Part shown: positions 1 to 57,702 of the stretch, one piece after another
How the letters are laid out: the number at the start of each line of letters is the position of its first letter
How positions within the stretch are numbered: position 1 is the first letter of the stretch
Sequence record: NC_028248.1
Reading direction: 5' to 3' (one strand)
Length of the DNA: 64,000 nucleotides
Source of the DNA: Escherichia phage slur16
Program-made: the position numbers and the translations under genes
The notes under the pieces: model-generated
Databases searched by the model: none
Told to the model about the DNA's origin: nothing
Seen by the model: only the letters and a program-made list of their open reading frames with translations

Positions 1-2615
1 AACAAGTCAGTGGTGGCCTTGTTGGTATTGGCAATCAAGGTGTTGAGGTCAGTTTTTGCGGTAGTTATCTTGCCGTCAAGGGTGGTATAGTTTTTAGATA
101 CCGTCGCGTTTGTCTGACTAATCTTTTGATCCAGAGTTTCAGATGTCCTGTTCAAAAGATCCACAGTGGCCTGGTTAGTGCTCAAGATGCTTGCGTCAAG
201 TTCTGTTCTCTGAGTATTGATCTTACCATCCAGAGTTTTATCTCCGGCTAAATACCCGCTCTCAACTCCCTCTATCTGCTCTACCAGCTCACCTTTGGCG
301 GCAACCAATTTCTCATCTAAAGCCTCTGTCTTTTTGTTCAGAAGATCAGTAGTTGCTTTATTGGTTGTCTCAATCAGGGATGCCAATCTTCCACTTTCAG
401 TGTTCAGATCGTTGGTGAACTTGTTCTGTGCAGCAACAAGTTTCCTATCCAGCGCTGTGATATTGCCATTGACATCCTCAAACTTCTGAGTTGTCTCTGT
501 AACTACCGCACCTATTCTGTCTCCAAGTTGCTGGAATGCCTCATCTACCCTACCATCCATGTACCTGTTAAGTTCTGTGACACGATTTTCAACCTCTTCA
601 ATAGAGGAATCCAAAGTGCTCATCAACTCTTTATAAGTTTCTGTCTTTTTGAATTCAGCATCTATCTGAGGCATCAAATCCTCAATAGAGGTGTAGCAGC
701 GTGCAGCGCATTCTACAAACTGAGAACTACCAAAAGCGTTTGTGGTTCGAATATACCAATAATAAACCTTATCGTTCTGCAGACCTTCAGATGTCCAAGT
801 TGAACCAACACCCATACGGGTGGCGTTTGAAGTAACGGTTGCATCACTGGTGTCGGGCAACCTTGTCATACCGGATGTCCAAAAGTCATACTGGGTGCTA
901 ACACTTGCTAAATCCCTACTATGCGGAATCAAGGTGATAGCAAAGTATCCTTGCTTAACCTCTACAGAAACCGGAGCTTCAGGTGCCTGAATGTTAAACT
1001 CACAATACGCTTCTGGAGATACACCACCTTTATAAGATGTTGCAACAACAGTGGCTGTGTAGGAACCTTTAGTCAGACCTTCAACACGGACAAACTGCTC
1101 AACTGTCTGTGCTGTCCAAACAATCTCTCCGTTCTTTCTTACCTGCACAATATTTTGAGCGTAAGTCCCAACGTTGTCCCAGGCCAAAACACCGTGAGTT
1201 ACTTCCCCAGCTTGGAGAACGGAGTATCTGAAGTTTTGCGGCTGAGCTACACCGGACGGGGATATCGGAATATCTACATCGCCGGAATCCGGAAGTTGCC
1301 CTGTGGCATCATTCCACTCTTTAGCATCTTGACGAAGTTTTACCTTGACACCGCCCTTTTTGGTGAACTCCCATTCAAGAACCCTCATTTCTTGGCCCAC
1401 GATACCAATACTTGGGAGGTCCATTGTAACATAACGGCCAGGCTTAAATTTAAAACCTCGCATATTGCAGGTGACTTCAATAATCCTGCCAGCTCTAGCA
1501 CGTCTTAGGAAGATTGCAGAAACACGCTGAGCTTGATAAGGACTGGTAACAAAGCGATAATCTATATCGATTATCTTTCTTTCTCCATCCTTCTCTATCC
1601 ACTCTGGGACAAACACTGATGGAAAATCTGTTTCAGAATACCCTTTGGTCGGGCTAGTGAATCTGCCAGTTATTGTGTTGGATCTTTTGTCAAATGAGGC
1701 TTCCGGATAGATCTTAACCTCACCACAGACACAGTCCTCACTAAGTGTCATTGTTGCTGGGCCATAGTATGCACCAACCAGCAAACCATACTTACCAGCA
1801 ACATAACTAAGATCTGCACCGCAAGCTTTCAGCATTTCTGCCATAATACTTGCTGGGGCCTCATCCATGTCAAACTCACCGTTAATGGTGTAACGGCGCT
1901 CACTGGTTCCGTCTGCGTTTTTTACCGCCTCGTCGCATATGTTGGCAGCCTCCTTGAAGGACTCCCAGTTGATGGTTTCGTCAGGACATTTAAGGTACGT
2001 TCTTAAATAGTCTAGGATCACCAAGGCAGCGTTATTGGTGTACACCTCTTTACTGATACGAGGATCATAGCATTTTTTACCAATCTTGACGAGTGTAACG
2101 TTTGGCAACCCAAAAGGAAACTTGTTAGGGTCAAACCTGAAGCTGGCACGTAGCCAACTGATCCCTCTACCTATCATGTCAGGTGACCATGATGGGCAGT
2201 GTGTACCCATGAAAGGATCAGATGTTTTTCTGTCGTTATGTAGCTCCCACGATACCAGATCTCCATACGAGGAAATAGGATTACCGTCGATAAGTATATC
2301 TTCTATACCTTCCAGAGGGTGATTGGCAAGAACAATAGCACAATGGAGGGTTCTGTCGCTATCCTGCTCCAAAAACGCAAGCAATCCAGATGTGCGTGTC
2401 TTTCCATACACTACAGAGCAAGGTGCAGCAGAAGATCTGAGAAGCTTTTGTCTATCTTGCTGACTTCTGTAAGATTTGTTGCCCTCAAAAATCTTATCCA
2501 AAGTTCTGGTGGTCACAGTGTTCAGGCTGTCAGCCAGAGCTGCCTTGGATGCGTTCCAGTCATAACTTGAAGATCTTGCAGAAGCAACGATGTTATCAAT
2601 CATTGCAATTGGCAT
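1..2615 (-). CDS. Host-specificity / central tail fiber protein, lambda gpJ-like (partial; N-terminal ~870 aa in window, C-terminus beyond position 1)
   Basis: Minus-strand frame is open from ATG (revcomp of cat at 2613-2615, overlapping the stop of the upstream gene) to the window edge; spot-checked codons at 3-59, 900-959, 1440-1499 and 1983-2039 contain no stops. Not in the ORF track because it has no stop in the window. Translation contains GYFAITLIPH...YDFWTS...YYWYIRTTNAFGSSQFVE, which matches my recollection of the lambda J central region; the C-terminal part has tandem TN(K/Q)AT(T/V)DLLN repeats. Confidence 0.55.
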   Translation of the reverse strand, partial: MPIAMIDNIVASARSSSYDWNASKAALADSLNTVTTRTLDKIFEGNKSYRSQQDRQKLLRSSAAPCSVVYGKTRTSGLLAFLEQDSDRTLHCAIVLANHPLEGIEDILIDGNPISSYGDLVSWELHNDRKTSDPFMGTHCPSWSPDMIGRGISWLRASFRFDPNKFPFGLPNVTLVKIGKKCYDPRISKEVYTNNAALVILDYLRTYLKCPDETINWESFKEAANICDEAVKNADGTSERRYTINGEFDMDEAPASIMAEMLKACGADLSYVAGKYGLLVGAYYGPATMTLSEDCVCGEVKIYPEASFDKRSNTITGRFTSPTKGYSETDFPSVFVPEWIEKDGERKIIDIDYRFVTSPYQAQRVSAIFLRRARAGRIIEVTCNMRGFKFKPGRYVTMDLPSIGIVGQEMRVLEWEFTKKGGVKVKLRQDAKEWNDATGQLPDSGDVDIPISPSGVAQPQNFRYSVLQAGEVTHGVLAWDNVGTYAQNIVQVRKNGEIVWTAQTVEQFVRVEGLTKGSYTATVVATSYKGGVSPEAYCEFNIQAPEAPVSVEVKQGYFAITLIPHSRDLASVSTQYDFWTSGMTRLPDTSDATVTSNATRMGVGSTWTSEGLQNDKVYYWYIRTTNAFGSSQFVECAARCYTSIEDLMPQIDAEFKKTETYKELMSTLDSSIEEVENRVTELNRYMDGRVDEAFQQLGDRIGAVVTETTQKFEDVNGNITALDRKLVAAQNKFTNDLNTESGRLASLIETTNKATTDLLNKKTEALDEKLVAAKGELVEQIEGVESGYLAGDKTLDGKINTQRTELDASILSTNQATVDLLNRTSETLDQKISQTNATVSKNYTTLDGKITTAKTDLNTLIANTNKATTDL

Positions 2616-3052
2616 TAATACCTCCAGACATCAACAACGATAGAATCTTTCATGTCGAACATAAAGACCCCTTTATCACCTTTCGCCCAAATCTGGTTGT
2701 TCCAGAACACACCAGCGGTGAGCCCGTTCAGACCTTCGAAAATAACAATATCGCCACGCTGAACCTGTTTAGGAGTATCCAGTCGAGTCATAAAGAGATC
2801 AAAAATAGTAGGCAGGTGTGTAGTTTTGAAACGAAGCATGCACCATCTTTTGCTTTCCAACTCTGTTTTATACGTTCCTTCGAAGTTGGAAAGAAAATCT
2901 GTTCCGTATTGGGCATCAACACACTTAGCCGCAAAGGTGCAACAATCGTGGAATCCCCATTCAAAAGGTATGGTGGCCTCTTCGTCAAACACTTTCCACA
3001 ATCTTTCTTGCCAATCCACTAAACGAGGGTGTGTGCTCATTAAACCTCCCAA
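2615..3052 (-). CDS. Tail tip-associated protein, hypothetical (Cys/His-containing; possible NlpC/P60-like fold, lambda gpK-like position)
   Basis: 145-aa ORF immediately upstream of the J-like gene with a 1-nt stop/start overlap; FHDCCTF motif. Position and weak motif only. Confidence 0.3.
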   Translation of the reverse strand: MGGLMSTHPRLVDWQERLWKVFDEEATIPFEWGFHDCCTFAAKCVDAQYGTDFLSNFEGTYKTELESKRWCMLRFKTTHLPTIFDLFMTRLDTPKQVQRGDIVIFEGLNGLTAGVFWNNQIWAKGDKGVFMFDMKDSIVVDVWRY

Positions 3053-3606
3053 ATGATCGGGCGGCTCGCCACCTGATCCACATATTTAAAAAATCTGTCA
3101 TTATCGTTTCTTGAGCTGTGGCTTTCCTCCGTGTACCGATAAGGAAAACCTCTTAACCAACTGTTGAAGATGGAAGAGATGGATATGGACAGAGCACTGT
3201 TCTCACCTGTCTGAATAGCCATATCTGTTATAAGGCCGTCAAACAAGCCATTAGTTGTAACAGGCAGACCATTCTCCATAGCGGTAATATACAACGTGGC
3301 ACGACAACCAGAATACTCCGTCTTCAGTAGATCACCAACATACTTAGGATCAAACCCGTTCAATGTTGCTACCACAGATCCGAAGTTGGTGGCATCTTTC
3401 TCAGACACAGCAGTTAATGTTGCTGATCCACCTATCCCTATAAAATGTTGCCCCTCAATTACTACAACACCAGTGCCTGAGCACACCCTGACAGTTCCTG
3501 TCGGTAGCTCCAGCTTTGCAGCAATTAAGATCTCAACACCATCAAGCTCCAGCTTTTCAAGAAATAAATTATCTAATGGCGCTCTGATCATCTTAGAAAT
3601 CCTCAA
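3040..3606 (-). CDS. Hypothetical tail assembly/tail tip protein
   Basis: 188-aa ORF, co-oriented and overlapping its neighbours in the tail tip cluster. Confidence 0.3.
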   Translation of the reverse strand: MRISKMIRAPLDNLFLEKLELDGVEILIAAKLELPTGTVRVCSGTGVVVIEGQHFIGIGGSATLTAVSEKDATNFGSVVATLNGFDPKYVGDLLKTEYSGCRATLYITAMENGLPVTTNGLFDGLITDMAIQTGENSALSISISSIFNSWLRGFPYRYTEESHSSRNDNDRFFKYVDQVASRPIIWEV

Positions 3607-4183
3607 AGAAGTTGATAACTATATTATCACCTTTTTGCATAGCATCGACTTTTTGCTTAATTTTATAAATATCTCTGATATGAAACCTACCCTTCGGGGA
3701 TTGAGTTATTATCTTCATAGTGTCCCCTGCGGCAATAGGTTTTCTAAGTCTTGGAGATATGCTTATAACAGCAGACCCAACACCATCGCTACGCACTGGA
3801 GCTGTTACCACTTTCAATTCATCATTGACAGATATTTTATCCCCAGCTCTAGCTATATCCCTGTTCGGCTCCCAACCAACCGTCTTCAAAAAATCGTCGT
3901 TACCAGTAGGCCCAAGGGCGATTGGCTCATTAGCTGTAACTGAGTGACCGTAAGTTTTAATAAGAAAGATGTTTCCATCTTTATACACCTGATCAACAAA
4001 GCTCTTAAGCTCTAGCAACTGTGACTCGCTGATATTGGAAACCGTCAAAGTGCCTTTCCAGTTAGGTGTGGCATAGGTTACTTTTTGCGTTTTACCTGTA
4101 AACGGACTTTTAAACGTAACAATATCTGCCAGCAGCTCCAATCTAATATCTGGAAGGTATCTAGGCCTTTCCCATAAAAACAT
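3593..4183 (-). CDS. Hypothetical tail protein
   Basis: 196-aa ORF, first gene after the terminator at 4244-4275; no recognizable motif. Confidence 0.3.
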   Translation of the reverse strand: MFLWERPRYLPDIRLELLADIVTFKSPFTGKTQKVTYATPNWKGTLTVSNISESQLLELKSFVDQVYKDGNIFLIKTYGHSVTANEPIALGPTGNDDFLKTVGWEPNRDIARAGDKISVNDELKVVTAPVRSDGVGSAVISISPRLRKPIAAGDTMKIITQSPKGRFHIRDIYKIKQKVDAMQKGDNIVINFFEDF

Positions 4184-4243
4184 TGTGCCTCCAGGTTAAA
4201 CAATCATGATAGCTATTTTACCAGATTTTGAGTTAATACGCAA

Positions 4244-4275
4244 TACAAACAAAAAGCCCCCGCCGAAGCGAGGGC
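4244..4275 (-). terminator. Rho-independent terminator downstream of the long tail fiber gene
   Basis: Minus-strand hairpin GCCCUCGC-UUCG-GCGGGGGC (plus 4256-4275) followed by UUUUUGUUUG. Confidence 0.6.
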
Positions 4276-4282
4276 AGAACAG

Positions 4283-7200
4283 TTACTTCAGTTTCTCTTG
4301 CAATCCAGTAACAACCTCTGTCAATTTTTTAACCTGCTCCTCAAGGGCGGTTATTTTATCGTCCTGTTCCCTGCAAACCTGGACAAGCAAGCCTGTTACA
4401 GCTGCGTAGTCAACGTTATAGAACCTTTCCTCGGTCATCAGAGGAATACCGTCTTGAGTAGGACCTTCTATTTCCTTCCTTTTCACGAAAGATCCTACTG
4501 CCTCTGGCAATGCTTCCATAACCTCTTGAGCAATCACGCCTGCATAAGGCATACCATTCTCTTTCAAGGTGTAGGTATAGCCTTTCATCTTTCTAATTGC
4601 TTCCAGAGCGTTAGGTATGACCTCTATATTATCCTTCAGGTCTCTATCGGAACTTTGGCTAACAGTGGTACATTCTACCGTGCCGTTGACAGCAAAATAT
4701 CTTGATTTAGCCTCATCTGTCTTAGCTCCGCAGTGGAATACCCAGCTGGCGGCTGTTGAGTTATCACTTATCTGAAACTCAAGCACATTCTTCCTATCAG
4801 CGCCATTACCCCAATAGTACAACCTGCCTGTATTAGAAGGCATGTTCGAAGTGTTGGTAACATCAGCACCACCACCTGTGTGTATTGTGAACTCAGGTTC
4901 AAGATTGGACCCTTGAGTTTTTAAAGTGATACCCTTACCGCCAAGCTGCTGCCAATGGCCCCATGTGAAAACACCACCTATCGTTGTTCCATAACGCAGG
5001 AATTTTTCTCCAAGATATGTTGTATATTCCTGTACGCAACTCTCTGGAACGTTGGCATAGTTTCTATAGACAAGGAGAGTACCTGCCTGAGAGCATGGGT
5101 AGTTTCTATCAAGTGCGGCTTGAGCATTGGTCTCCTGATGATAAAAACCCTCTCTATCTCCTTTGTAGTCGTTAAGGTCATTAGTTCCCAACCCTTGACC
5201 ACGGTGCTGAATAACTTTGTTCCACGCTCTGTGGTTTCCCTGCTCTATGGAACGAGTGTACAGCTGGTCTAAACGACCTGCCATCTGGAAAGCGTAGTTT
5301 CCAGAAAAACCAACCGACAACCCTGCTACAACCATGGAACCTTCAGGTCCGTTGACGTTACCAGCCATTATTTTAGAAGGGTTGTTATTCCCGAACTGGT
5401 TGTTCCAGTCTGCACCTGTGTGGCATACAAAACCACCAGGAGCTGAGAAAGTGCCATCTTTGTTGAAGTTGTAGAATCTGTGAGCAGAACCTACAACATC
5501 ACGAACAATAACTTGACCAGCCTCTGGAGTAGATCTGAACTCTGCCTGACCTTTGAGACCAGCACCATTACCGCATTTAGAGGTAAACGTACCGTTAGTC
5601 AGATCCTCTGTCCCATCTGATGCACACTGGAAGCCTGCATTAGAGAATAACGCCTTTCTAGGACTGCCGTAGCACAAATAGTCAAGACCGTCTGCCCATA
5701 GCTCGACTTTTGGCATATTCATTTTGCTCATCACAGCATAGCGTTCAGCAGTGCCTATATAGTGCCACTGTGTGCCGCCACCAGTGTAGAACCCTGAAGT
5801 ACCTTTGAAGTCAACAATAGGTCTGGTATTGGTGTTATTATCTCCAAGAATAGCAAGATTCAAATCTGCTGACTGAAGAGGTGCAACGAACTTAACCCCA
5901 TCCTGATTGTCTGTTACAGCCCCAACCTGGTAATCTTGCTCTCTGGTAAACACTTCGACAACATTTCTACTTGCGTATATGCTGACAGGGAAAGCACGAG
6001 CCTCCACATAGAAAGCAACATACTCTTGTTTACCCCTTGTTGGAGCAATCATCCCAAGAAGTGCTTTTTCATTCTGGTAGAAATTTACTACCCCGTAGAA
6101 AGAGTCTCCCCTGTCCGTCCAGCCGCCAGTTCTATAGTGACACTGCAGGGTGGCACAGTTCATAGGGTCATTTCCAGATGAAGACCTGGTGACTATAGTA
6201 ATATCTGTACCTGTCGAAGGGGCGTAATACGGATCTGTTCTAACGATGATTGGGTAGTATTTCCCATCTTCCATCCCTGCGGTTCTTGGTAGTGTTAAGA
6301 AGTCTTTTACACCTGCTGCTATAGGAACTTTGAACAGATTCTGAGCATCTGCTAAAGTTGTAGCCCCGGTGCCACCTGCGGCTTGAGGTAGAGGTTCCCA
6401 CTTGGCCTTCCGGTTGTTATAAACACCCCATTCCAGAGTGCCGTTACCGGATTCGTCCATCCCACCATCCCAGATAACCATCTTGGCGGCTTTCTTGGAC
6501 CCCCAGAAGCCTCTTTCTGCTCCTGAACTACGAATCCACTCTCCAAGTCCCCAGTTTGTCAGCTGACCAGTAAGATCCCCAACCTGCATGTATTTAGGGC
6601 AGTCTAACACGCCGTCTTCGCGGAAACCTAAATATCTATGGGTTTCAGATCCTTTTGCACCTTTGTGCAGGTGGATTGTCAACCAAGCCTTATTGTCGTT
6701 TCTTACCTCAGAGTAGATCCTATATCCATGCTCAAGGACACCGTCAGCGCTGTATTTGTCCCCGTTAACAATACCTGATGCTGACTTAACATCAGCAGAA
6801 CTTTGAGACAGGTAAAGGTGCCCGAAGGTAGGGGAGTTTCTAGACCCGAGACCGATGTGCGATCTAAAGGTATCATCGTTACGAGGTCTGACCATTGGCT
6901 GCCATGCAGTCCACTGGTTTGTGTTGGCCTGATAGGTTCTCAAATACCAAACATCCACGTTAGAGAATGGATAGTATTCCTGACGACAACCTGTACCGCC
7001 GTTAGCATTGTTCTGCCAAACAATCAAGTGACCAGCACCAGAACCTGCAGGGTAACCATTTGCCTCAGTTGCATAAGCAGTCATCGGCTGGTAGTATACA
7101 CCATCCTGATTACCAGTCAAGTTATTGATATTGAAATTTGGCTCAAGGGCTGCACGTTGCTTATAGAAAGCCCCGATATTGATACGGACTCCAGCGGCAT

Positions 7201-18960: not shown

Positions 18961-20337
18961 TTATTCAGTCATTGCAACAGCATTGGTGGATTTAGAACCA
19001 ACTTTGTCCAGAAGGACGTTGATCCGGATACGAACGAAGTGCAGGGCGTTGTTATACACCAGTTCTACTTTCACACCTTCCAGAACACGAGCAGCCAACT
19101 GATTGGTTGGAATCTCTGCACGTTTAGGAACTGTGATGATCGGGTCGTAGAACACATTGTTGTCTTCGTCAAAACCTGTCAGGATCGCACCATTCTTAAT
19201 GCCAGTGTTGATTGGGTTGTTCATCAGGACAGACTTGATAACCGGAAGATCATCATCAGACATCTTCATGCTTAAACCCATGTTGGAGCGACGATGCATG
19301 TACCCAAACATAGATTCTTCAGATCTGAACTTGATCCAGTGTGCAAAACGAATAGCGTCTGCATACTGACCTGAAGCACACTTACCTTCCCAGAAAGCGC
19401 CAACACCGTTAATCATTCTGTAGAAGTTAACGTGGTTTTCCCAAATAGCCATACGCTGAGTTAAAGTCAGAGACGGTGCAATCACACCTGGCATCTGTTT
19501 TAAGTGCAAGCTGTCGCCGTAGGACGGATCGTTGGATGCCATAGCACCTATGATACCACCCTCCGGGAAGTCCTTATCTGCACGAGGATCGTACATGCCA
19601 ACACTGTCATATTGTGCAGCTTTCAGTTTGGTAGCGATGTTACTATCTTTGCCAGTCACATCTTCTGCAGTAGAGTAGACGTGCAGCTTGTAGTTGGCCT
19701 GAGCCCACTTAGCACATGCTTCAATGTCGGTGTGGTCTTCATGGCACAGGAAGTACCAATTGTCCCGCTCAGCATTGATCTTATCAACTACTGTAGAAGG
19801 TTTTTCAGCATTGGCGATATTTTTAATTGTATAGTTACCAGTATGATAACCTACAGTGCAGTCACCAGTGATGGTGATAACACCGTCTTCAGCCGCTACA
19901 GTGATATCGTCCAAGTTATCATCTGCTTCGATTTTAGTCTTCATGGACTCTGCGATCTGAGTTGCAGCTGTCCCACCAGAGATAGGAACTATCAAAGAGG
20001 TATTGTAGCCACCTTTTGCAATAGTCATTACTACATCGGTATCAGCTGCGGCAGCAATACCTTTAAAATCTACAGTGGTTTTTTCTTTGGCCTGTCTGCC
20101 GATCATAACATATTGTGGAGGGAATACACCACCAAAAGCTTTTGCTGCAAACTCATACGCTGCAGAGCCTTGTGCGAAACCATCTTCCACCATCTGATCC
20201 AGCTCCGCATATACGCGAGCTCGCTCAGTAAAGTTGTTGTGGATAGCGATGAACAGGGGAGTTTCGAAACCTACAGTGTCAATAGGTTGGGTTCCGAGGT
20301 TAACTGTAACATCTACCACTTTATCTAAATATGGCAT
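18961..20337 (-). CDS. Tail sheath protein (putative)
   Basis: 458-aa ORF preceding the tube gene; assignment by size and gene order. A siphovirus-type major tail protein cannot be excluded. Confidence 0.45.
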   Translation of the reverse strand: MPYLDKVVDVTVNLGTQPIDTVGFETPLFIAIHNNFTERARVYAELDQMVEDGFAQGSAAYEFAAKAFGGVFPPQYVMIGRQAKEKTTVDFKGIAAAADTDVVMTIAKGGYNTSLIVPISGGTAATQIAESMKTKIEADDNLDDITVAAEDGVITITGDCTVGYHTGNYTIKNIANAEKPSTVVDKINAERDNWYFLCHEDHTDIEACAKWAQANYKLHVYSTAEDVTGKDSNIATKLKAAQYDSVGMYDPRADKDFPEGGIIGAMASNDPSYGDSLHLKQMPGVIAPSLTLTQRMAIWENHVNFYRMINGVGAFWEGKCASGQYADAIRFAHWIKFRSEESMFGYMHRRSNMGLSMKMSDDDLPVIKSVLMNNPINTGIKNGAILTGFDEDNNVFYDPIITVPKRAEIPTNQLAARVLEGVKVELVYNNALHFVRIRINVLLDKVGSKSTNAVAMTE

Positions 20338-20409
20338 TTGTTTCCTCTTAATATCTGTGCACGGATATCAAACACGCAGTGTAATCATTACACTACACAA
20401 TTATAACGA

Positions 20410-20961
20410 TTACTGACCACTGTCTGTAACCGATTTATCAGAATTGGGTGAAGGGAAGTGTGTGGTTATTTCAGCCTTAATTCCCTGAAGATCCTCAAAA
20501 GCCCCAATGTCTGTCTCAACAAACCTTACGTTAAATGTCAGCATTACCGTGGCTCTATTTTCATACGTCTGCTTATTCAACGGCACTCTTTGAGGTGAGA
20601 TTGTTGAATTGTTAGAGTAGGCAAAGCACGATCCCAGAGGGAAATACTTGTCATAAAACATTGGAAGGTTTATTGCTTGCAATACTCTGCTAAGTGCAGC
20701 ATATGCCCTGCCGCGATAAGCTGTTAACAGATAAGTAACAGTGTAACTGTGGGTGACGTAAGCATTACCTTCCGCATCTTGAAACTCATTATCTTCCCAA
20801 GTGGTGGGATTGATCGCCAGGGTTTGCAAAAGTACAAACTCACCTTCCGGCTTCGGTATGGTAGAGCTTTCTGCCAGAACTACAGTTCTTCCTGTGGCAA
20901 CCTTGACAAGCTTAGCGATGGTTGTTTCAAGATCAGAAAAAACTTTTTCGAAAGCTTCCAT
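20410..20961 (-). CDS. Hypothetical structural protein (neck / tail completion region)
   Basis: 183-aa ORF between head and tail modules. Confidence 0.3.
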   Translation of the reverse strand: MEAFEKVFSDLETTIAKLVKVATGRTVVLAESSTIPKPEGEFVLLQTLAINPTTWEDNEFQDAEGNAYVTHSYTVTYLLTAYRGRAYAALSRVLQAINLPMFYDKYFPLGSCFAYSNNSTISPQRVPLNKQTYENRATVMLTFNVRFVETDIGAFEDLQGIKAEITTHFPSPNSDKSVTDSGQ

Positions 20962-21386
20962 CAGTTTTCTCCTTCAGGCTCTTCTACCACAAAAAATCTA
21001 TATCTTCCACCACCAGACGTGACATAAGCATCACATTTTAAAACGGTAAACCACTTCAGGTCACCACGGATGTCAGGCAGTTGAATTTGATCAGCCATTG
21101 CATATGTTCCTTCGTCTGGACTATACAACTTGGTTGAGGAGTAAACTGTAAAAGCCTCGTACTGTCTGTCACCCTCAGGATTTATCTGGGAGGAGTAATC
21201 TTTAGCTGCCCTTCCTGTCAACGGCTGCACAACACACTCTAAGACATCAAACTCTTCATACTCAAGTTCTAACCCCTCGTTGGCAAAAGGGCCACCAACT
21301 GTTTTGTTATACACTCTGTGGCGACCTTTGAATGTTTTACGAGGTATTAGTCTGTTCTTTCCTATCAGCTTATAACCTGCTGCCAC
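20961..21386 (-). CDS. Hypothetical structural protein (head-tail joining region)
   Basis: 141-aa ORF with 1-nt overlap to neighbour. Confidence 0.3.
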   Translation of the reverse strand: MAAGYKLIGKNRLIPRKTFKGRHRVYNKTVGGPFANEGLELEYEEFDVLECVVQPLTGRAAKDYSSQINPEGDRQYEAFTVYSSTKLYSPDEGTYAMADQIQLPDIRGDLKWFTVLKCDAYVTSGGGRYRFFVVEEPEGEN

Positions 21387-21402
21387 TCAACCCCCCTTAT
21401 TT

Positions 21403-21873
21403 TTACTGTCCGATTTTAAAGGTTGCAGATTCAAGCAGCACATCGTAATGCCGCATAGCCTCGTTGAAGCCTTTCTCTTGTGCCCACTGCTCGCTAACAG
21501 TAGGATTACTAAACTGCCCAGCCTCAATAACAAACTGGATAGCTTTGGCCCCTGTGTCCCCCATCTGCTTAAGAATAGCCTCTGCACTCGATCCCCTAGC
21601 CATAGCTCTCAACAATTTTTCTGTCAAGGTCTGTAGTTGAGTACTATGAAATGCAAAAGCTGTCTCCATGAAATTGCGAACAGGCAGCCCGTTCCAACCG
21701 AAGTTGTGAATGGCTGCCAATGTTGCCATATTTAAGCCTGACGGGTGAGGTTCGTCATAAAAGCCGTAGGTTATTGTTTTACTTTCAAGTCTCACAAGCT
21801 CTTTGTAGAAGCGATCTAAACGCTTTAGGTTGAACCTTGTTTGACATTTAACCTTTAGCATTATATCCCTCAC
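21403..21873 (-). CDS. Hypothetical structural protein
   Basis: 156-aa ORF. Confidence 0.3.
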   Translation of the reverse strand: MRDIMLKVKCQTRFNLKRLDRFYKELVRLESKTITYGFYDEPHPSGLNMATLAAIHNFGWNGLPVRNFMETAFAFHSTQLQTLTEKLLRAMARGSSAEAILKQMGDTGAKAIQFVIEAGQFSNPTVSEQWAQEKGFNEAMRHYDVLLESATFKIGQ

Positions 21874-21914
21874 TAATGTATTTTACCACAAAGATGCATC
21901 AAAAGCAACAATTT

Positions 21915-22592
21915 TTAAAAACTGCGTTTGCGTCTTGGGTGGCGAGGAGGTTGGTTATTTAGACCACTGATAGGTGTAATCCCCTGGACATCGAACGGTC
22001 CGTTGCTGTTTTCATTAAATTTAACCCGAATTCCTTCGTCTACACGAACACCACCAATGATAATCATTCTGCTGTAAGCATCTAACTCAGAATCTACATA
22101 GTCTGGGTGTGCCAGCAGCCAATCAAGAAAATCCTTCCATTGGGCGTAGGAAGATCCACCACGAATCTCTATGGTCTCATCACCTATTTTTTCCAGACGG
22201 GAAGTTATACTTGCATTACCACTGGACACTTCCTGCATCATCAGCCACCGCACAAGTTGCACAAGAACATTGTACTTAAGCAGCGGTAGCTTATCAGGAT
22301 CTGCCGGATAATTTAGTTTCAACTTCTCCATGTCAAGGAATGTTTTAATTACCTCATCAGGGAGAGTTTCCTCATCAACATTGCCAAGCAATAACCTCAT
22401 AATATCAATAAGAGGTTGGTCTGGATCAGGTTCCGGAGGCACAGGATCTTCTTTTGGTGGTTCTTCTGGGGTATCGACTACACCATCATGGTTAGGCGGT
22501 GACGGGATAATCTCTTCATCTTCATACCATGCCATTTGAAAATACCTCGTAAAAATAAAGCCCCATTCCTGATTTGGAAGGGGCCTTAACAA
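21915..22592 (-). CDS. Hypothetical structural protein
   Basis: 225-aa ORF with acidic/Pro-rich N-terminus. Confidence 0.3.
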   Translation of the reverse strand: MLRPLPNQEWGFIFTRYFQMAWYEDEEIIPSPPNHDGVVDTPEEPPKEDPVPPEPDPDQPLIDIMRLLLGNVDEETLPDEVIKTFLDMEKLKLNYPADPDKLPLLKYNVLVQLVRWLMMQEVSSGNASITSRLEKIGDETIEIRGGSSYAQWKDFLDWLLAHPDYVDSELDAYSRMIIIGGVRVDEGIRVKFNENSNGPFDVQGITPISGLNNQPPRHPRRKRSF

Positions 22593-22594
22593 AA

Positions 22595-23422
22595 TTATGC
22601 CAGTGCAGCCTCAAAATCTTTCATCATATTTTGGAAAGTTTTTGCCTTACTTAAGGTAACACCGTACTCTTTAGCGAAGGTTTGGAGTGCATCTTTTGAA
22701 CCACTTTTGTCATCTTCGTTGTTAAGAGCTGCGGCCTGTTTAAGGATTTCATCCTTATTCTCAACGGCTACAAATGAGGAAGAGGATACAGTCACATCTT
22801 GCGGATCTGCTACAGTAACTTCACCGTCACCACCAGGTTCAGTAGGACCTACAGGTGGCTCCGGCTCTGGTTCAGGCGGTGGAGCTATCGTAGAGACCAG
22901 TCCAAGATTTACAACCTGAGAACGTTTCTTAGGCCACTCAATGGTGAAAGTTTGGGTATCTTCTTCATAAACAATGTTGCATTGCTCATCGTTTATGGTC
23001 ACTTTTTTAGGCATCCCTACAGGGTCCCATAGATGGCCCTCTGCCACGGAAACTTGGAAAGCCGCATCTACCTCTTTAAACACTGACGGGGTGAGTGTGA
23101 TATTGACATCCCCGCTTTGCAGTGTTAAAGTGCTTTCATCAAGGTTCTCTGTGAAGAACAGAAGAATAACACCCATACGGATAGTTGAAATACCAGTATC
23201 AATTGGCAGGCCTGTGTGTTTTGCAATCTTCTCGAAGAAGTCTACAATCGTTCTGCACGGATAGTGAACACTGCCAATAACGAATTCTGTTGGTGGCAGC
23301 AGGGCTGATAAACCAACATTGATTTCTGGATTGTATTGTGATAAAAATTGATAAAAACTTAACTGATTGTTGAAAACTCTTAATAGAGGATCATACTCGA
23401 CTGGATATACAGCTCTCTTCAC
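22595..23422 (-). CDS. Hypothetical structural protein
   Basis: 275-aa ORF with a PPPEPEPEPP linker; downstream of the capsid gene and its terminator. Confidence 0.3.
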   Translation of the reverse strand: MKRAVYPVEYDPLLRVFNNQLSFYQFLSQYNPEINVGLSALLPPTEFVIGSVHYPCRTIVDFFEKIAKHTGLPIDTGISTIRMGVILLFFTENLDESTLTLQSGDVNITLTPSVFKEVDAAFQVSVAEGHLWDPVGMPKKVTINDEQCNIVYEEDTQTFTIEWPKKRSQVVNLGLVSTIAPPPEPEPEPPVGPTEPGGDGEVTVADPQDVTVSSSSFVAVENKDEILKQAAALNNEDDKSGSKDALQTFAKEYGVTLSKAKTFQNMMKDFEAALA

Positions 23423-29199: not shown

Positions 29200-29533
29200 C
29201 CATTCGAATTGTGTCGTTTATGTTCGGGCAAGGTCGCTAGTCTTGCCCCGCCATTTTCAGGCAGCTGCATGTCTCCATGCAGACCAGACTATATCTTATA
29301 AGCGACAACAACCGCTTATCCTCCCGTTTCGAATCGCTTGATTCTACGTCTTTCGACTAGTCGTTGAACGTTCATCCTCTCGGATGCTTCGCTGCGGATT
29401 ATCTAAATTAACACACTGTTACCATACCTTCGATCTCTCTTCGAAGCCTCTATCATGTTACCATGACAGGTTGGTGGTATTAATAGTAAAGATTTCCCCG
29501 CAATTAGGGAGGTTTTACGAGAGCTACAAATTA
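29200..29533 (-). ncRNA. Group I self-splicing intron (ORF-less) interrupting the terminase large subunit gene
   Basis: Minus-strand RNA contains the canonical group I core elements in order: P AAUUGCGGGGAAA (plus 29503-29516), Q AAUCCGCAGC (29391-29400), R GUUCAACGACUAGUCGAAAG (29350-29371), S AAGAUAUAGUCUGG (29284-29297). Exon 1 ends ...GAU GAG GGU immediately followed by an in-frame UAA; no ORF inside. Splice junctions estimated to within ~15 nt. Confidence 0.8.
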
Positions 29534-29959
29534 ACCCTCATCGAAGCAAACCATGGTGTACTCAAGCCCTTGATGGTTAAGCTTATCTTGTACATACTCC
29601 ATGTGGCAGTATTTTACAACAGCTCCCTTTTTGCTTCTATCCCACTTGCCAGTGTTCGGATCAAACCGTGGAAAAATGAACTTATGATCCTTCTCTCTGA
29701 ACTTTGGCTTAATGTTTTCAGGCAGATCACTATAAATAGCTACCGCTTTAGGCCATAGTCCACCCTCACCTTCCAACTGCGGGGTTGTTCTTCGGAACAT
29801 AACCACAGAGCTGTGGGGGTCATCAATAATTTTAAGTGGCATCAATTGCAAGAGGAACGACTTGCCAGACCCTGCGGCACCGCCGATTACCAAAATATCT
29901 GCATCGTTTTCGAGGATCATCTTCTGCTTTTCAGAACACGGTCCGTAAATCTTAGACAT
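29534..29959 (-). CDS. terL: Terminase large subunit, exon 1 (ATPase domain)
   Basis: Walker A GGAAGSGKS and Walker B MVCFDEG; the frame is closed by a UAA that is the first codon of the intron. Confidence 0.75.
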
Positions 29960-31308: not shown

Positions 31309-31407
31309 GGTGCTAGGTGATGGAATCGAACCACCTATGTATTCAACGACTACCTCGTCTATTTTCAGGATTAAAAATCCTCGCCCTTGCCAAAGGGCTT
31401 ACCTAGC
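31309..31407 (-). tRNA. Aberrant tRNA-like element (99 nt; possible tRNA-Lys UUU derivative with ~26 extra nt)
   Basis: Perfect 7-bp acceptor pairing GCUAGGU/ACCUAGC, D-arm GCCC-UUUGGCAA-GGGC, T-arm GGUGG-UUCGAUU-CCAUC, 3' end ...ACC followed by UUUUUU (no encoded CCA). The anticodon position is a palindromic hairpin AGGAUU-UUU-AAUCCU (alternatively a 4-bp stem with UUUUUAA loop, anticodon UUU), and ~30 nt lie between it and the T-arm. Confidence 0.35.
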
Positions 31408-33756: not shown

Positions 33757-34262
33757 AGCTGCCTCCTCTTCAAGTTATAGAAAAACTCACTGTATCGCTT
33801 TGTAACGAGCTTTTCTATCAAACTGGTGCGATTGCCTTACCTGGTATAGTTTATATAGCTGTGGAGCGATTTAGGGGCCTTCTTGTCCGTTTCCACACAT
33901 AAACTTCATCCAAGCTCGCGCGGGAGACTCTCAACCGACTCCTTACGGCGCTGGCAAGCTTTCGTCGGTGGTCCACATCAGTGCTCGGCCTTTGGCCTGC
34001 GCTATCGCTTCGCTCCCACACATGTTAACAGACCTTCATGTATGCACTTCTGTTATTGTGTGCACCAAGGAGGCCCGGCATCTCGCCCCTCGTAGGCGAG
34101 TGCCAATGAAGGGCCGACACTACCTATAGTAAGTAATAAATTTAAAACATGGTACTTAGGATCTAGTATATTCTACATAAGTTAAGTATATGTATTTAGT
34201 ACCATAAGTACTAGATCTTTTATTTTTTTTATTATTTAGTTATTTTAGTTATATTCTTTATG

Positions 34263-34343
34263 TGTCCGTATCACGGACAGTTAGTGTCCGTATTACGGAC
34301 AGATGTGTCCGCGTGACGGACAGTAGTGTCCGTATCACGGACA
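34263..34343. repeat. Four tandem, phased 17-bp palindromic sites (TGTCCG-N5-CGGACA) - operator/iteron array
   Basis: tgtccgtatcacggaca (34263-34279), tgtccgtattacggaca (34285-34301), tgtccgcgtgacggaca (34306-34322), tgtccgtatcacggaca (34327-34343); centre-to-centre spacing 21-22 bp; flanked by an AT-rich tract at 34140-34260. Confidence 0.7.
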
Positions 34344-34418
34344 GTTACTAACCTCTGTTCCAGAGTGAACATAAAACATACGAATCCTTATAGTACAGAT
34401 ATTTAAGTTTTTACTGGT

Positions 34419-34769
34419 CTAACCAGTTGTTGACATTCGAATAACTTCTTCTGGTGGCAAAACTTTGGAAAATGTGCATCTTTTACCTCTCCCTTGTGTG
34501 GATATTTCAACCACTCCTGCACATTCTAAAGTTTTAACGCACGCTGCTGCTTTTGTTTTCTTTATCCCAATATCTGCTGCAATTTTCCTTGTGCTGGGCG
34601 TGAAGCGTGAATTTCCTCCAAGCTTATACCAGTTGTGCAGGTAGCAGTATACGATCTTGTCATATAAGTCAAGAACAACAACCTCACCAGTTGTGTCATT
34701 CAAAACTTTTGACATAGACAGTATTTCAAGGGGGACTTTAAGATATAGCAGCTTATCCCCATCTTTCAT
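34419..34769 (-). CDS. Hypothetical protein, possible HTH DNA-binding protein
   Basis: 116-aa ORF; segment STRKIAADIGIKKTKAAACVKTLECAGVVEI resembles a helix-turn-helix; lies ~75 bp from the palindromic repeat array. Confidence 0.3.
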   Translation of the reverse strand: MKDGDKLLYLKVPLEILSMSKVLNDTTGEVVVLDLYDKIVYCYLHNWYKLGGNSRFTPSTRKIAADIGIKKTKAAACVKTLECAGVVEISTQGRGKRCTFSKVLPPEEVIRMSTTG

Positions 34770-34816
34770 ATCTCCTGATTCTCCTTGTGTGGCAATTTTC
34801 TTTAAAATAGCAGGGA

Positions 34817-35371
34817 TTACTCCACGCTGTCAATAGCAAGACTCATTGCAATACGGTATGCCTCTTCTAATGGTAAGAGTCTCCCCCACACATCCCAACC
34901 GACATCAAACTGCCTGCCAAACAACTGCTGTGTGGTTCCGTGAGCATGACCGAACAGTTGGACCGATCCGTGAGGCTTTCTGTTCCACTTTGCAAACTGG
35001 TAATGGCTCATACAGATCAAATTCTTGTTGTGGCGAAGCTCGTAATAATCTACAACCTCATGACCGAACTCTTTCATAATTCTGACAGTCGTCCTTGTGT
35101 CATGGTTACCACGAACAAGAATAATATGTCCGTTCAACATATTTAGAACATCTGGGAGCAATTTGTTAATATTCTTATCATTAGTGCACGCAATATCTCC
35201 TAAGTGAAACACAGTGTCTGCAGGTGACACAACAGAGTTCCACTTGGTGATGATCCCCGCATTCATACTGTCAAGATTGTGATCATACTGAGATCTGTGT
35301 TTTTGACATGAGTCAAACTCCATGACCCGCTGGTGGAGAAAGTGTGTGTCGCTTGTTACAAAGTATTTCAT
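34817..35371 (-). CDS. Calcineurin-like metallophosphoesterase (putative polynucleotide 2',3'/3' phosphatase)
   Basis: Start trimmed to MKYFVTSDTHF; metallophosphoesterase motifs DTHF, HLGDI, VRGNHD, GHAH. Confidence 0.65.
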   Translation of the reverse strand: MKYFVTSDTHFLHQRVMEFDSCQKHRSQYDHNLDSMNAGIITKWNSVVSPADTVFHLGDIACTNDKNINKLLPDVLNMLNGHIILVRGNHDTRTTVRIMKEFGHEVVDYYELRHNKNLICMSHYQFAKWNRKPHGSVQLFGHAHGTTQQLFGRQFDVGWDVWGRLLPLEEAYRIAMSLAIDSVE

Positions 35372-35789: not shown

Positions 35790-35889
35790 AGTAATCCTCC
35801 GTTTTAATTTCAACGATAGTATACCTAACTGTTTTGTTAATTTCAAGTGTTGACACTAGGTTATTTGTGTGGCAGGATAGACTGACAAA

Positions 35890-54506: not shown

Positions 54507-54785
54507 ATGAGCTGTGAAAAATCTTTTTTCTTTATTATTTACGGTAAAGATAACTGCCCACATTGTGTAAGAGCAAAAGAATTTGCAGTCAGTAAAGGTC
54601 TGCCTTTTGTATATAAGACACTTGGCGAGGGTTACACAAAAGAAGAGCTTATTGAGAAGTGCAGTCCAATCGTACCCAGAACGTTGCCGCAGATCTTCTT
54701 AGAAAGCAATCTTGAAAGTGTCCATATAGGCGGTGCCGACGATTTCATCTCTTTTGTTAAGAATGGTTTTGGAGAGAAAAAGTGA
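54507..54785 (+). CDS. Glutaredoxin-like protein (NrdH/Grx)
   Basis: 92 aa with CPHC redox motif (YGKDNCPHCVRAKEF), between nrdB and nrdD. Confidence 0.6.
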   Translation: MSCEKSFFFIIYGKDNCPHCVRAKEFAVSKGLPFVYKTLGEGYTKEELIEKCSPIVPRTLPQIFLESNLESVHIGGADDFISFVKNGFGEKK

Positions 54786-55642
54786 AAGTTGTAAAACGGG
54801 ACGGTAGAGAAGAGGTCTATAACGGAATTAAGGTGATCAAGGCGGCAGAGTCCGCCTTACTTGAGTCTGGACATACTGAAGAAGAAGCTTACCGGATCGC
54901 CTGTGCGGTTAATGAAGTTGTTGCTAACAATCTACCAACCGATCAGTGCACGATCTCTGTAAAAAATATCCATATCCTTGTTGAAGATGCTCTTATGGAT
55001 ATGGGTTTAAAATGTGCAGCCAGAGAATACATCCAGTATAGGCAGACAAGAGATAATAACAGAGAGGCAGGTGGAAAACTGCTTGCAGATATTAGTGGCT
55101 TCTTGGATCGCACTTGTGATGAATTTACAAAAGAAAACGCAAATAAGCCTACCAATCATGTACACACTCATCGTGACCTGCTTGCAGGCATCCTTAGCAA
55201 ACACCTTGCATCAACACAGATCCTGCCAGACCGTGTCTCAGAAGAGCACAATAAAGGCTTCATCCATGTGCATGATCTTGACTACTTGATCAGTCCGTTA
55301 ACAAACTGTTGTTTGGTAAATTATCCAGATATGTTGGAAAACGGATTCAACATTGGCAACGCCCATGTCAGTAAGCCGAAGTCAATAGGGGTTGCAACAA
55401 CAATCCTTAGCCAAATCTCTAGTGCGGTAGCTAGTGCTCAATATGGTGGTCAGACTATGAGCCATATTGATCATTATCTGGCACAGTATGCTGAAGCAAC
55501 CTATGAGAAGAACCTTAAATTTTGCCAGGAACATTGGTTGCCGGATGCTGAAACTGTTGCAATGCAAATGACAGATAAAGACGTATTTGACAGCATGCAG
55601 ACTTTGCTCTATCAAATCAATACGTTAACTTCTGTCAACGGT
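54782..55642 (+). CDS. nrdD: Anaerobic ribonucleoside-triphosphate reductase, exon 1
   Basis: GTG start with RBS; N-terminal ATP-cone-like region; frame closed by UAA immediately after ...AAC GGU, the same arrangement as the terminase intron junction. Confidence 0.75.
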
Positions 55643-56430
55643 TAACAAACTGGCCGTTGTAAAACTCTCCTAACCTCATAAGAGGGGTCGGTAAATCCGG
55701 CTAACGGGGAACGCTAAGGCGAAAGCTATGCCAATCCCGTGACTAGTTCTTACAGGAGTTGGAACGGTTGTAACGACTAACGAAAGGCAGAGATGCTTGA
55801 CAAACATTTCTGAACCAAGTAGTGTAGGGGTTAGTTGAAATACTAACTTCGAAATGGAGAGGCTCTATGAAAAAGATCATTCTTAATGGTGAAGAATCAA
55901 ACTATGTGATTGATGAAGTTGGAAACGTATACGGAAAACGTGGAATGCTGCACCCAATATTGTGGGGAGGTTATGGAAAAGGTAATAAGCATGTTAAACG
56001 CCGTTATATGTACTCTTTCAACCACAAAGGTAAAAAGATTCGAATCCAAACCTCAAGGGTTGTTGCCTTGTATTGTTTGCCAGATGTCCCAGAAGACCCT
56101 GAAAACTGGGAAGTGAATCATAAAGATGGCAATACATTGAATGATCATCCGTCTAACCTAGAGTGGGTTTTGCCGGAAGATAATAAGAGACATGCTTTCC
56201 GAACAGGACTTTGTCCAGGTAAGTGCTATAGGAAAGTGCAGGCATACAAAGGGAAAATCTTGGTGGGTGAATATCCTTCACTCTACGCCTGTGCAAAAGC
56301 CTTAAATTTGAACGTAGGTAACGTTCACAGGGCTATCGAAGGAAATGCCGAAGGTAAGCATCTCACAATAAAGGGTTATTATCTTATTGAAGTAGAGTAA
56401 GAGATAGTCTGGCCCTGTGGAAACACAGGG
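55643..56430 (+). ncRNA. Group I intron interrupting nrdD, carrying an HNH homing endonuclease ORF
   Basis: P/Q-like pair UAACGGGGAACG / AAUCCCGUG (55692-55740), R element GUAACGACUAACGAAAGG (55776-55793) and S element GAGAUAGUCUGG (56401-56412) flank the HNH ORF; nrdD frame resumes after the intron. The 3' boundary is estimated. Confidence 0.7.
55867..56400 (+). CDS. HNH homing endonuclease (intron-encoded)
   Basis: 177 aa; HNH motif EVNHKDGNTLNDHPSNLEWVLPEDNKRH; C-terminal helical DNA-binding-like segment; preceded by GGAGAGG RBS. Confidence 0.75.
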   Translation: MKKIILNGEESNYVIDEVGNVYGKRGMLHPILWGGYGKGNKHVKRRYMYSFNHKGKKIRIQTSRVVALYCLPDVPEDPENWEVNHKDGNTLNDHPSNLEWVLPEDNKRHAFRTGLCPGKCYRKVQAYKGKILVGEYPSLYACAKALNLNVGNVHRAIEGNAEGKHLTIKGYYLIEVE

Positions 56431-57702
56431 AGGAGACAGCAGACTCCATTCATCACATTGAGTTTAGGACTGGATACCTCGGTCTTTGGTAGAATGATTA
56501 CCAAAAACTACCTGAAAGTCCACAAAATGGGTCTTGGTGAAGAACGTATCACACCTGTGTTCCCTAAAGTGCTGTTCTTCCTGGAAGAGGGTGTCAACAT
56601 GAACCCTGGGGATCCTAACTATGATTTGAAACGATTAGCTCTGGAATGCTGTGCAGAACGTATCTATCCTGACTTCGTATCTGTACCACTAAATAGAAAA
56701 GTGACAGGCTCGACAGATGGCAAAGTAACTAGCATGGGTTGCAGGAGTTTTCTTAGCAAATACAATGACTTGGAAACAGGCGAGGAGAAATACCTTGGCA
56801 GATTTAACTTAGGCGTTGTTAGCCTTAACCTGCCAATGATTGCGGCAAAAGCCAAGACGGAAGGTGTTGATTTCTTTGCAGTTCTTGACGAATACTTGGA
56901 TCTTGCATACGAGGCTCACCTTGTAAGGGTTAATCGTCTAAAAGGAACAAAGGCAGGGCAGAACCCCATCATGTGGTGTGAAGGCGCTCTTGCTCGCCTG
57001 GATCCTGAAGAGAGTATTGATAAACTCTTCTATGACGGGTACGCTTCCATCAGTATTGGGTATATCGGTGTGTATGAAACCTGTCAGATTTTGGGCAGAG
57101 AGGGTGACAAGGCTTTAGCTCTTGGAATCCTTCAGCACATGAGAGATGCTTGTGAGCGATACAAGAAGGAAAGTAGACTAGCATTTAGCTTGTACGGCAC
57201 TCCTTCTGAGAGTCTATGCTATAAAGCTGCAACCTGTCTGGATCGTGAATATCCGGAAGTGTTGAAGCACGAGCATGAATATCTCACCAACAGTTTCCAT
57301 CAGCCAGTATGGATAAATAGCTCTCCTTTTGATAAGTGGGAGTATGAGGAAGGTTTTGCTATAATCTCCTCTGGTGGCAACATCGGATACGTAGAAACAC
57401 CTAACCTGAAAAACAACCTGGATGCTTTAGAGGCTCTTGTTGACTTCGGGTATAAACACATTATGTATTTTGGTATTAACCAACCTGTGGATAAATGTCT
57501 CAAGTGTGGTTTCTCTGGTGAGTTCAGTGCAACAGCTAAAGGCTTTGTATGCCCAGAGTGTGGAAACCATGAAGAGGGAACGATCAGTGTAATTCGACGT
57601 GTGTCTGGATACCTTTCCAGTCCTAACTCCCGTCCTTACAATAAAGGTAAGCAAGCGGAAGTTATCGAGCGAGTTAAGCACTACGGAAGTTGTGGTTGCT
57701 GA
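56431..57702 (+). CDS. nrdD: Anaerobic ribonucleoside-triphosphate reductase, exon 2
   Basis: Contains SMGCRS active-site cysteine motif, glycyl-radical motif RRVSGYL near the C-terminus and Zn-site CPECGNHEE; 5' boundary approximate. Confidence 0.75.
   Translation, partial: RRQQTPFITLSLGLDTSVFGRMITKNYLKVHKMGLGEERITPVFPKVLFFLEEGVNMNPGDPNYDLKRLALECCAERIYPDFVSVPLNRKVTGSTDGKVTSMGCRSFLSKYNDLETGEEKYLGRFNLGVVSLNLPMIAAKAKTEGVDFFAVLDEYLDLAYEAHLVRVNRLKGTKAGQNPIMWCEGALARLDPEESIDKLFYDGYASISIGYIGVYETCQILGREGDKALALGILQHMRDACERYKKESRLAFSLYGTPSESLCYKAATCLDREYPEVLKHEHEYLTNSFHQPVWINSSPFDKWEYEEGFAIISSGGNIGYVETPNLKNNLDALEALVDFGYKHIMYFGINQPVDKCLKCGFSGEFSATAKGFVCPECGNHEEGTISVIRRVSGYLSSPNSRPYNKGKQAEVIERVKHYGSCGC

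Follow-up and report, generated by a model that had tools for sequence, protein, structure and literature searches.

What role is played by four phased palindromes that stand next to the most AT-rich DNA of a large lytic coliphage? The question was raised by a first-pass annotation of a 64,000-nucleotide stretch of Escherichia phage slur16 (NC_028248.1), here called the window, to which all positions refer unless another record is named. In that annotation the array was offered either as an operator array or as a replication origin. In the analysis described here the origin is favoured, because the relatives of the neighbouring protein are of the RepA_N type, the AT-rich tract is extreme for the genome, the palindromic site is unique in the genome, and the same layout is found in Rep-like genes elsewhere. 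Judged from its sequence, the locus is the first concrete candidate origin for the rV5-like phages (Vequintavirus), for which no origin has been defined so far, the skew analysis in the rV5 genome paper having failed in this respect. The candidate is compact, comprising about 350 bp and one small gene. Both E. coli O157 biocontrol and therapy cocktails make wide use of these phages, and a defined origin would aid the construction of phage-dependent replicons as well as the engineering of the phages themselves.

Anatomy of the array and its surroundings

The palindrome TGTCCG-N5-CGGACA is present in four exact copies (34263–34279, 34285–34301, 34306–34322 and 34327–34343), with start-to-start distances of 22, 21 and 21 bp, just as the first-pass annotation had described them. 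Since they are spaced two turns apart, the four palindromes lie on one face of the helix. No other exact copy occurs in the window, where six matches with up to two mismatches were counted against 1.18 expected, a number reached in none of 100 shuffled sequences. Genome-wide statements are based on slur12 (LN881735.1, 136,898 bp), the window being the exact reverse complement of its positions 13771–77770. The search for the palindrome elsewhere in the genome, which the annotation had proposed as a check, was run on the complete sequence and left the array copies unique, no further one being found at zero or one mismatch; the half-sites were likewise not enriched outside the array in these 136.9 kb. 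Moreover, the array is the top-scoring tandem repeat of the whole genome (Tandem Repeats Finder, TRF), and it is non-coding, with all reading frames closed. The features of the locus are collected in Table 1.

Table 1. Positions of the features of the candidate origin in the window, with the strand and the basis of each assignment
Feature	Position	Strand	Basis or remark
Conserved GC-rich (55–62%) non-coding block	33850–34125		Composition; phage of 43% GC
GC-rich imperfect palindrome (hairpin), far border of the AT-rich tract	34072–34115		DNA folding, conservation
AT-rich tract, candidate DNA-unwinding element	34126–34262		GC content, repeats, conservation
Four 17-bp palindromes in 21–22-bp units, candidate iterons	34263–34343		Pattern and repeat finding
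75-bp spacer, winged-helix stop codon to array	34344–34418		Least conserved piece of the locus
116-aa winged-helix gene (rV5 ORF79 equivalent)	34419–34769	-	ORF list, profile and fold matches
Sigma-70-like promoter of the winged-helix gene	34804–34833	-	TTGACA-18-TATTTT, TG extension, 10/12 matches

The GC content falls to 0.20–0.24 over about 34120–34262 (80-bp windows), and for window sizes of 60–140 bp the tract is the lowest-GC segment of the genome (0.13–0.19 against 0.20–0.26 for the next lowest). The AT-rich tract that had been noticed beside the array, at 34140–34260, is thereby confirmed and is the most AT-rich segment of the genome. It contains a 9-bp tandem repeat with 4.1 copies of ATAACTAAA (34218–34252, TRF), and an inverted repeat GATCTAGTA/TACTAGATC with two GATC sites at 34160–34168 and 34209–34217. 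On its far side, the hairpin folds as DNA with −15.5 kcal/mol (z −3.2) and is nearly invariant in 14 genomes. The surrounding GC-rich block holds a direct repeat, CG(T/C)T(T/C)CCACACAT, at 33888 and 34011, lacks a long open frame and, with a z of only −1.8 to −1.9, does not fold significantly better than shuffled sequences; it may belong to the origin as a GC-rich flank or be an element of its own. Small hypothetical ORFs have been annotated within it in some records. Nothing credible was returned by Rfam between 33700 and 34450, at either gathering or relaxed thresholds. DnaA boxes (TTWTNCACA) are absent from the locus, with seven in the window against 8.3 expected, and the lack of such boxes near the iterons rules against a DnaA-dependent iteron plasmid origin of the RK2/P1 type.

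Along the direction of transcription the order is promoter, winged-helix gene, 75-bp spacer, four palindromes, AT-rich tract, GC-rich hairpin and block, and finally a 192-aa ORF. The promoter corresponds to a site annotated in the rV5 record as the sigma-70 promoter P76; transcription from it heads towards the array and the AT-rich tract, and no terminator-like site was found between the winged-helix gene and the array. The possibility that the 192-aa ORF, or the non-coding DNA, represents a split or decayed Rep C-terminal domain was considered and rejected, no similarity being found. The point of gene divergence at 35846/35890, which is 1.5 kb from the array, is the global minimum of the cumulative GC skew (genome position 41940). 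Because it coincides with a switch in transcription direction, this minimum is not independent evidence; the same skew change was reported in the rV5 genome paper, where it matched the change in transcription direction and the origin was left undefined.

Other features of the genome were recorded in passing. A 2.5-kb stretch of slur12 outside the window (1770–4318) carries no annotated genes and probably corresponds to the box labelled 'non-coding' in the rV5 paper; four short tandem-repeat arrays lie in it at 2609–3210, together with several windows that come next in AT-richness within the genome, and this repeat-rich zone could serve in regulation or as another origin. At 29265–29543 on the minus strand, between two slur12 'Terminase-like' coding sequences, there is a group I intron (Rfam RF00028, 84.3 bits), by which the gene for the large terminase subunit appears to be split. 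In a cluster of seven tRNA genes there is an odd tRNA-like gene of 99 nt (31309–31407, minus strand), to which ARAGORN assigns a four-base anticodon (atcc), which reaches only 35.5 bits against the Rfam tRNA model, and which is given as tRNA-Lys in another record. Also, nrdD, coding for the anaerobic ribonucleotide reductase (about 54780–57700; slur12 20069–22989), is annotated as two coding sequences with a 534-bp ORF between them, which suggests an interruption by a mobile element (an intron or a homing endonuclease).

The 116-residue protein and its relatives

The small possible helix-turn-helix protein that had been pointed out about 75 bp from the array is indeed encoded there, by an ORF of 116 codons whose product gives winged-helix matches. 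Its stop codon lies before the array, which is thus downstream of the gene and not upstream. In Pfam the protein matches HTH_36 with 25.1 bits (cut-off 25) and DUF6945 with 27.1 bits, just under the cut-off of 28 (E 4.5e-6, profile positions 3–78 of 83), while no match to RepA_N (PF06970) or Phage_rep_O was obtained. In PHROGs it belongs to phrog_12838, 'replication initiation protein', and shows weak matches to three other families of replication initiators, phrog_270 among them. Its sole sequence relative in the PDB is 4RO3 (phmmer, E 1.8e-6, residues 12–90 against 10–92), the N-terminal domain of PLE RepA, an initiator of the RepA_N type from Vibrio cholerae; 4RO3 itself falls into DUF6945 with 80.7 bits.

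The predicted structure points in the same direction. A confident AlphaFold2 model (pLDDT 83.6) needed an alignment that included distant homologues, the single-sequence model reaching a pLDDT of only 37. When the confident model was compared with the PDB by Foldseek, the top seven matches all belonged to 4RO3 (the best, TM 0.68), 4PQL, 5KBJ and 4PT7, with 4PTA lower in the list, and all of these outranked regulators of the MarR, CodY and ArsR types. The title of entry 5KBJ is 'Rep-DNA complex', and 4PT7, 4PTA and 5KBJ are structures of staphylococcal plasmid RepA (PMC7145576). The protein therefore tests, in its modelled form, as a winged-helix fold of the RepA_N/DnaD N-terminal type. As judged from sequence profiles and this predicted fold, it is probably an origin-binding N-terminal domain of the RepA_N/DUF6945 type that stands alone, and not a generic repressor.

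The chain stops after the winged helix: the C-terminal domain that recruits the replisome is absent, no remnant of it was found downstream, and there is no nuclease domain. By tblastn and by a word-based protein search, the protein was found only in Vequintavirus, and HMMER, run against 1.84 billion representative sequences, gave only 12 matches at E < 1e-3. The nearest among its longer homologues (P0011, P0012 and, in locus L079, a DUF6945 protein of 156 aa) carry about 40–100 extra residues and end in an acidic tip (...DPDAPF, ...CDEAPF or ...DPDCPF) which is missing from the 116-aa protein. This tip resembles the C-terminal tail of SSB. In L079 (2522–3687) the 156-aa protein, with the DPDCPF tip, is followed by the 228-aa P0013, in which a GIY-YIG domain is fused to a domain similar to the RepA N-terminal one, an architecture like that of Odn with the domain order reversed.

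Conservation and similar arrays elsewhere

The 3-kb stretch around the array is 90–99% identical to about 117 Vequintavirus (rV5-like) records, and the 660-bp spacer is 94% conserved among 14 aligned Vequintavirus spacers. In comparison with the most divergent lineage, identity amounts to 96.3% for the array and 94.8% for the AT-rich tract, against 85.8% for the winged-helix gene, 88–93% for the neighbouring genes, 89.9% for the GC-rich block and 80% for the 75-bp spacer. Since the array and the AT-rich tract are better kept than the flanking genes, these values argue for selection on the DNA itself. Four copies of the palindrome are present in most Vequintavirus genomes, three in JES2013 and V18, and two in navn, and this range of two to four copies among viable phages counts against an origin. 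In most of these genomes one arm of repeat 2 reads CGGGCA. The module does not occur in Seunavirus and Mydovirus, sister genera which differ in gene order and in which no comparable array was found; it therefore cannot have served as the origin in the ancestor of the subfamily. Neither a transcriptome of a Vequintavirus nor data on gene essentiality in EdH4 turned up in literature and data searches.

Some of the records retrieved deserve a comment of their own. CP057073.1 (137,565 bp, E. coli from cattle faeces) was deposited as a non-mobilizable plasmid; it matches the array region at 99%, has the size of a Vequintavirus genome and is probably a phage genome assembled from a culture. Similarly, 18 records of 'Campylobacter phage' (MG0656xx), with Campylobacter jejuni given as the host, are 94–98% identical to E. 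coli Vequintavirus at the locus, and their host labels are doubtful. Two contigs from Logan end inside the array or within about 12 bp of it, and MG065672.1 starts at its edge; these ends probably arose during assembly, through the repeat or through heterogeneity in copy number.

A scan for two adjacent palindromes of this pattern gave 17 IMG/VR contigs of unrelated phages with 49–70% GC. They represent six lineages with two to seven palindrome copies at 20–25-bp spacing, and in all six the array falls within an ORF or at its end, immediately behind the segment for a winged helix, and is translated as a repetitive linker. In four of these six lineages the protein matches PHROG families termed 'replication initiation protein' or 'replication initiation O-like', phrog_270 being included. 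The same layout was met at three prophage-like loci, in genomes of Treponema, Kiritimatiellae and Parachlamydiaceae. At most of the array loci there is a local AT-rich dip beyond the array, away from the winged helix (e.g. a GC content of 0.23 in a locus of 0.66), and the polarity from winged helix to iterons to AT-rich dip is common to these loci and the window. In addition, a relative in a cyanophage, which bears the annotation 'replication initiation protein', follows the same plan with different repeats.

One further locus, P0016, was reached only through protein similarity to the 116-aa protein (HMMER, E 7.8e-4, 1.84 billion sequences). Directly after its winged helix it carries three copies of TGTCCCC-N5-GGGGACA, spaced by 22–24 bp, and these are followed by an A-rich stretch. 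No obvious arrays were seen in the closer homologues P0011, P0015 and P0013, which lie on short contigs. The link to the array-bearing Rep-like proteins is weak at the protein level, with an hhalign probability of 88.7% over 42 columns and no significant match by pairwise BLASTP.

The palindrome as such was also encountered in other settings. At eight loci in metagenome-assembled genomes of Burkholderiales, two TGTCCG-N5-CGGACA copies at 20-bp spacing start at the stop codon of a gene for a sigma-54-dependent activator with a Fis-type HTH end, often with a third palindrome about 76 bp away; these look like enhancer sites unrelated to replication. Furthermore, many matches in Myxococcota have no obvious winged-helix neighbour. 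Because it occurs both at these loci and at the Burkholderiales activators, the palindrome alone is not diagnostic of an origin. No matching array was found in 5,426 complete E. coli genomes, and a full-text search of the literature returned no relevant account of TGTCCG/CGGACA iterons.

Competing explanations and comparison with known systems

Taking these observations together, we consider it probable, with appreciable room for doubt, that the locus is an iteron-type replication origin of the rV5-like phages, bound by an initiator reduced to its N-terminal domain. Besides the relatives of the protein, the conservation and the layout shared with other loci, the points counted for this are the phased and unique palindromes together with the genome's most AT-rich segment and the GC-rich hairpin beyond it, a sigma-70 promoter, read as early, which drives the winged-helix gene towards the array, and the proximity to the GC-skew minimum, even though skew follows transcription direction. 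As in origins of the lambda type, phased palindromic iterons are followed by an AT-rich region, whereas the array stands after the stop codon and not inside the coding sequence of an O-family initiator. As in origins of the RepA_N type, semi-palindromic direct repeats are found beside the gene, here as four 21–22-bp units with 6-bp inverted arms.

While the parts of the locus are read directly from the DNA, a mechanism can be proposed by analogy with known origins. The early-expressed 116-aa winged-helix protein would bind the four palindromes as dimers, and the bent nucleoprotein complex so formed would destabilise the adjacent AT-rich tract, the opening of which would be helped by transcription from the gene's own promoter. 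The phage replisome, with a gp4-like helicase-primase, a family A polymerase and possibly an SF1B helicase similar to RecD/PIF1, could then enter the opened DNA. Since the protein is a DNA-binding N-terminal domain alone, recruitment of the replisome would be either indirect, by remodelling of the DNA, or mediated by another factor. In large lytic phages, replication often starts from several origins or depends on recombination.

A more far-reaching proposal, which we put forward as a rather unlikely one, is that the rV5-like phages start their replication with a minimal initiator, a DNA-binding domain of the RepA_N type devoid of any recruiting part, or else hold a captured cassette of N-terminal domain plus ori from a widely mobile family. 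In the first case, opening and replisome entry would take place purely by DNA remodelling at four iterons beside an AT-rich tract, which is the mechanism proposed for PLE RepA. In the second, a TGTCC-type iteron would have been reused across phyla (Treponema, Kiritimatiellae, Chlamydiae, and the phages of actinobacteria and proteobacteria) despite almost no protein similarity being left.

The strongest of the competing explanations, to which we grant a small but real chance, is that the 116-aa protein is a transcription factor which binds cooperatively to the four sites, as an operator or roadblock array, and has no part in replication. It could stop or modulate read-through from the early genes (a kinase, a phosphoesterase and the winged-helix gene) into the tRNA and late region, or control a promoter beside the array. 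In fact, the protein is annotated as a putative transcriptional regulator in several GenBank records, its fold is shared by regulators of the MarR and CodY types, and the array separates the early, promoter-driven block from what remains of the 81-27 transcription unit, no intrinsic terminator lying between the two. A weak promoter-like match on the plus strand of the spacer (34366–34394), only 23 bp from the array, is nearer to the consensus in the divergent lineage, and the pairing of the palindrome with sigma-54 activator genes in Burkholderiales also fits a regulatory role. Nevertheless, consensus scans, which are weak evidence either way, gave no promoter-like site overlapping the array and no sigma-70-like match in the AT-rich tract, and the late-promoter motif of rV5, TGGTAAAATA, is absent from the tract, though enriched in the late region. 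Moreover, a regulator would here have one site per genome, situated downstream of its own gene; its nearest relatives in sequence and fold are replication initiators and not repressors, those regulators standing lower in the fold list; and the genome-extreme AT-rich tract beside the array would be left unexplained.

It is less probable still that the locus, captured from a plasmid, a satellite or another phage as a cassette of N-terminal domain and ori, does not work as the origin of the phage and is either a relic in decay or a device turned to conflict, i.e. a DNA-binding-only mimic of RepA that blocks a competitor with the same iterons, or a decoy site. The restriction of the module to one genus, with its absence from the sister genera, and the missing C-terminal domain are in keeping with capture, as is the locally GC-rich block beside the tract, which hints at foreign DNA. 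Transfer of such cassettes as whole units is known, e.g. in pPR9 (PMC5703833), ICP1 Odn provides a precedent for use against the PLE satellite (PMC8263062), and the distant homologue P0013 combines a GIY-YIG domain with a RepA-N-terminal-like one. Decay is, however, argued against by the array and AT-rich tract being the best conserved parts across all 117 records and the divergent metagenomic lineages, and by the lack of C-terminal remnants, the downstream 192-aa ORF being unrelated to Rep C-terminal domains. As for a role in conflict, the protein has no nuclease domain, and the absence of the array from the complete E. coli genomes leaves no known target element.

Finally, a function other than initiation on duplex DNA, with the units acting as four RNA hairpins in the 3' UTR of the winged-helix gene or as a packaging or partition site, is very improbable: each unit can form a GC-rich stem of 6 bp with a 5-nt loop, the CGGGCA arm retains a G-U pair on the plus strand, and the array coincides with or adjoins the ends of one GenBank record and of two short metagenomic contigs, but this arm breaks the pair on the transcribed minus strand, there is no U-tract, other phages have the same arrays within the coding sequence of Rep-like genes, and most record ends are elsewhere, contig breaks at repeats being a common assembly effect.

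On the origin reading, a large lytic coliphage is connected with the RepA_N/PLE RepA lineage of initiators, seldom met in Gram-negative systems. An N-terminal domain acting alone as initiator would be a simple system in which to study how proteins of the RepA_N type open DNA for a T7-like replisome, a question that PLE raises as well. Among the known origins, that of phage lambda has four palindromic iterons, bound by dimers of the winged-helix N-terminal domain of O, an AT-rich region and a palindrome, with transcription reading in. The succession of iterons, AT-rich region and palindrome, and the transcription reading in, are alike in the locus described here. The lambda ori is inside the O gene, the C-terminal domain of O recruits P-DnaB, and no loader similar to P was seen in the slur12 phage.

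With the RepA_N plasmid replicons, pSK41 and pTZ2162, the phage shares the order in which the coding sequence of the N-terminal domain is followed by the iterons. In pSK41, the 120-residue N-terminal domain of Rep binds four Rep boxes and bends the DNA; the boxes are central within rep, the linker encoded by the ori is dispensable, and the C-terminal domain binds the DnaG primase (PMC5703833). While the pSK41 boxes are inside the rep gene and code for a linker, the phage array is 75 bp past the stop codon and is accompanied by no C-terminal domain.

The closest relative of the 116-aa protein, in both sequence and fold, is the N-terminal domain of PLE RepA from Vibrio cholerae (4RO3). PLE RepA binds the iterons of its ori in EMSA, and these are required for PLE replication (PMC7145576). 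It has a C-terminal domain as well, whereas the phage protein corresponds to the N-terminal domain alone. In the PLE ori there are three iterons, each about 30 bp long, whose 13-bp arms flank a poly-A tract (PMC7145576, PMC8263062), compared with the four 21–22-bp units of the phage, in which 6-bp arms enclose a mixed centre and not poly-A. The PLE replicon relies on the replisome of a large lytic myovirus with an SF1B helicase (PMC7145576), and slur12 encodes a RecD-like helicase; the PLE element, however, resides in a satellite, and that of slur12 in the lytic phage itself. A homologue of the RepA N-terminal domain with iteron specificity is likewise encoded by a lytic myovirus in the case of ICP1 Odn, the origin-directed nuclease which this phage turns against the PLE satellite (PMC8263062). 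Besides that domain, Odn has a T5orf172 nuclease domain, and it is aimed at the origin of the satellite, while the slur12 protein has no nuclease domain and the matching repeats are in the genome of the phage itself. Iteron origins of the RepA_N and lambda styles are already known, and what would be new in the rV5-like phages is an initiator with the N-terminal domain alone and iterons placed just outside its gene.
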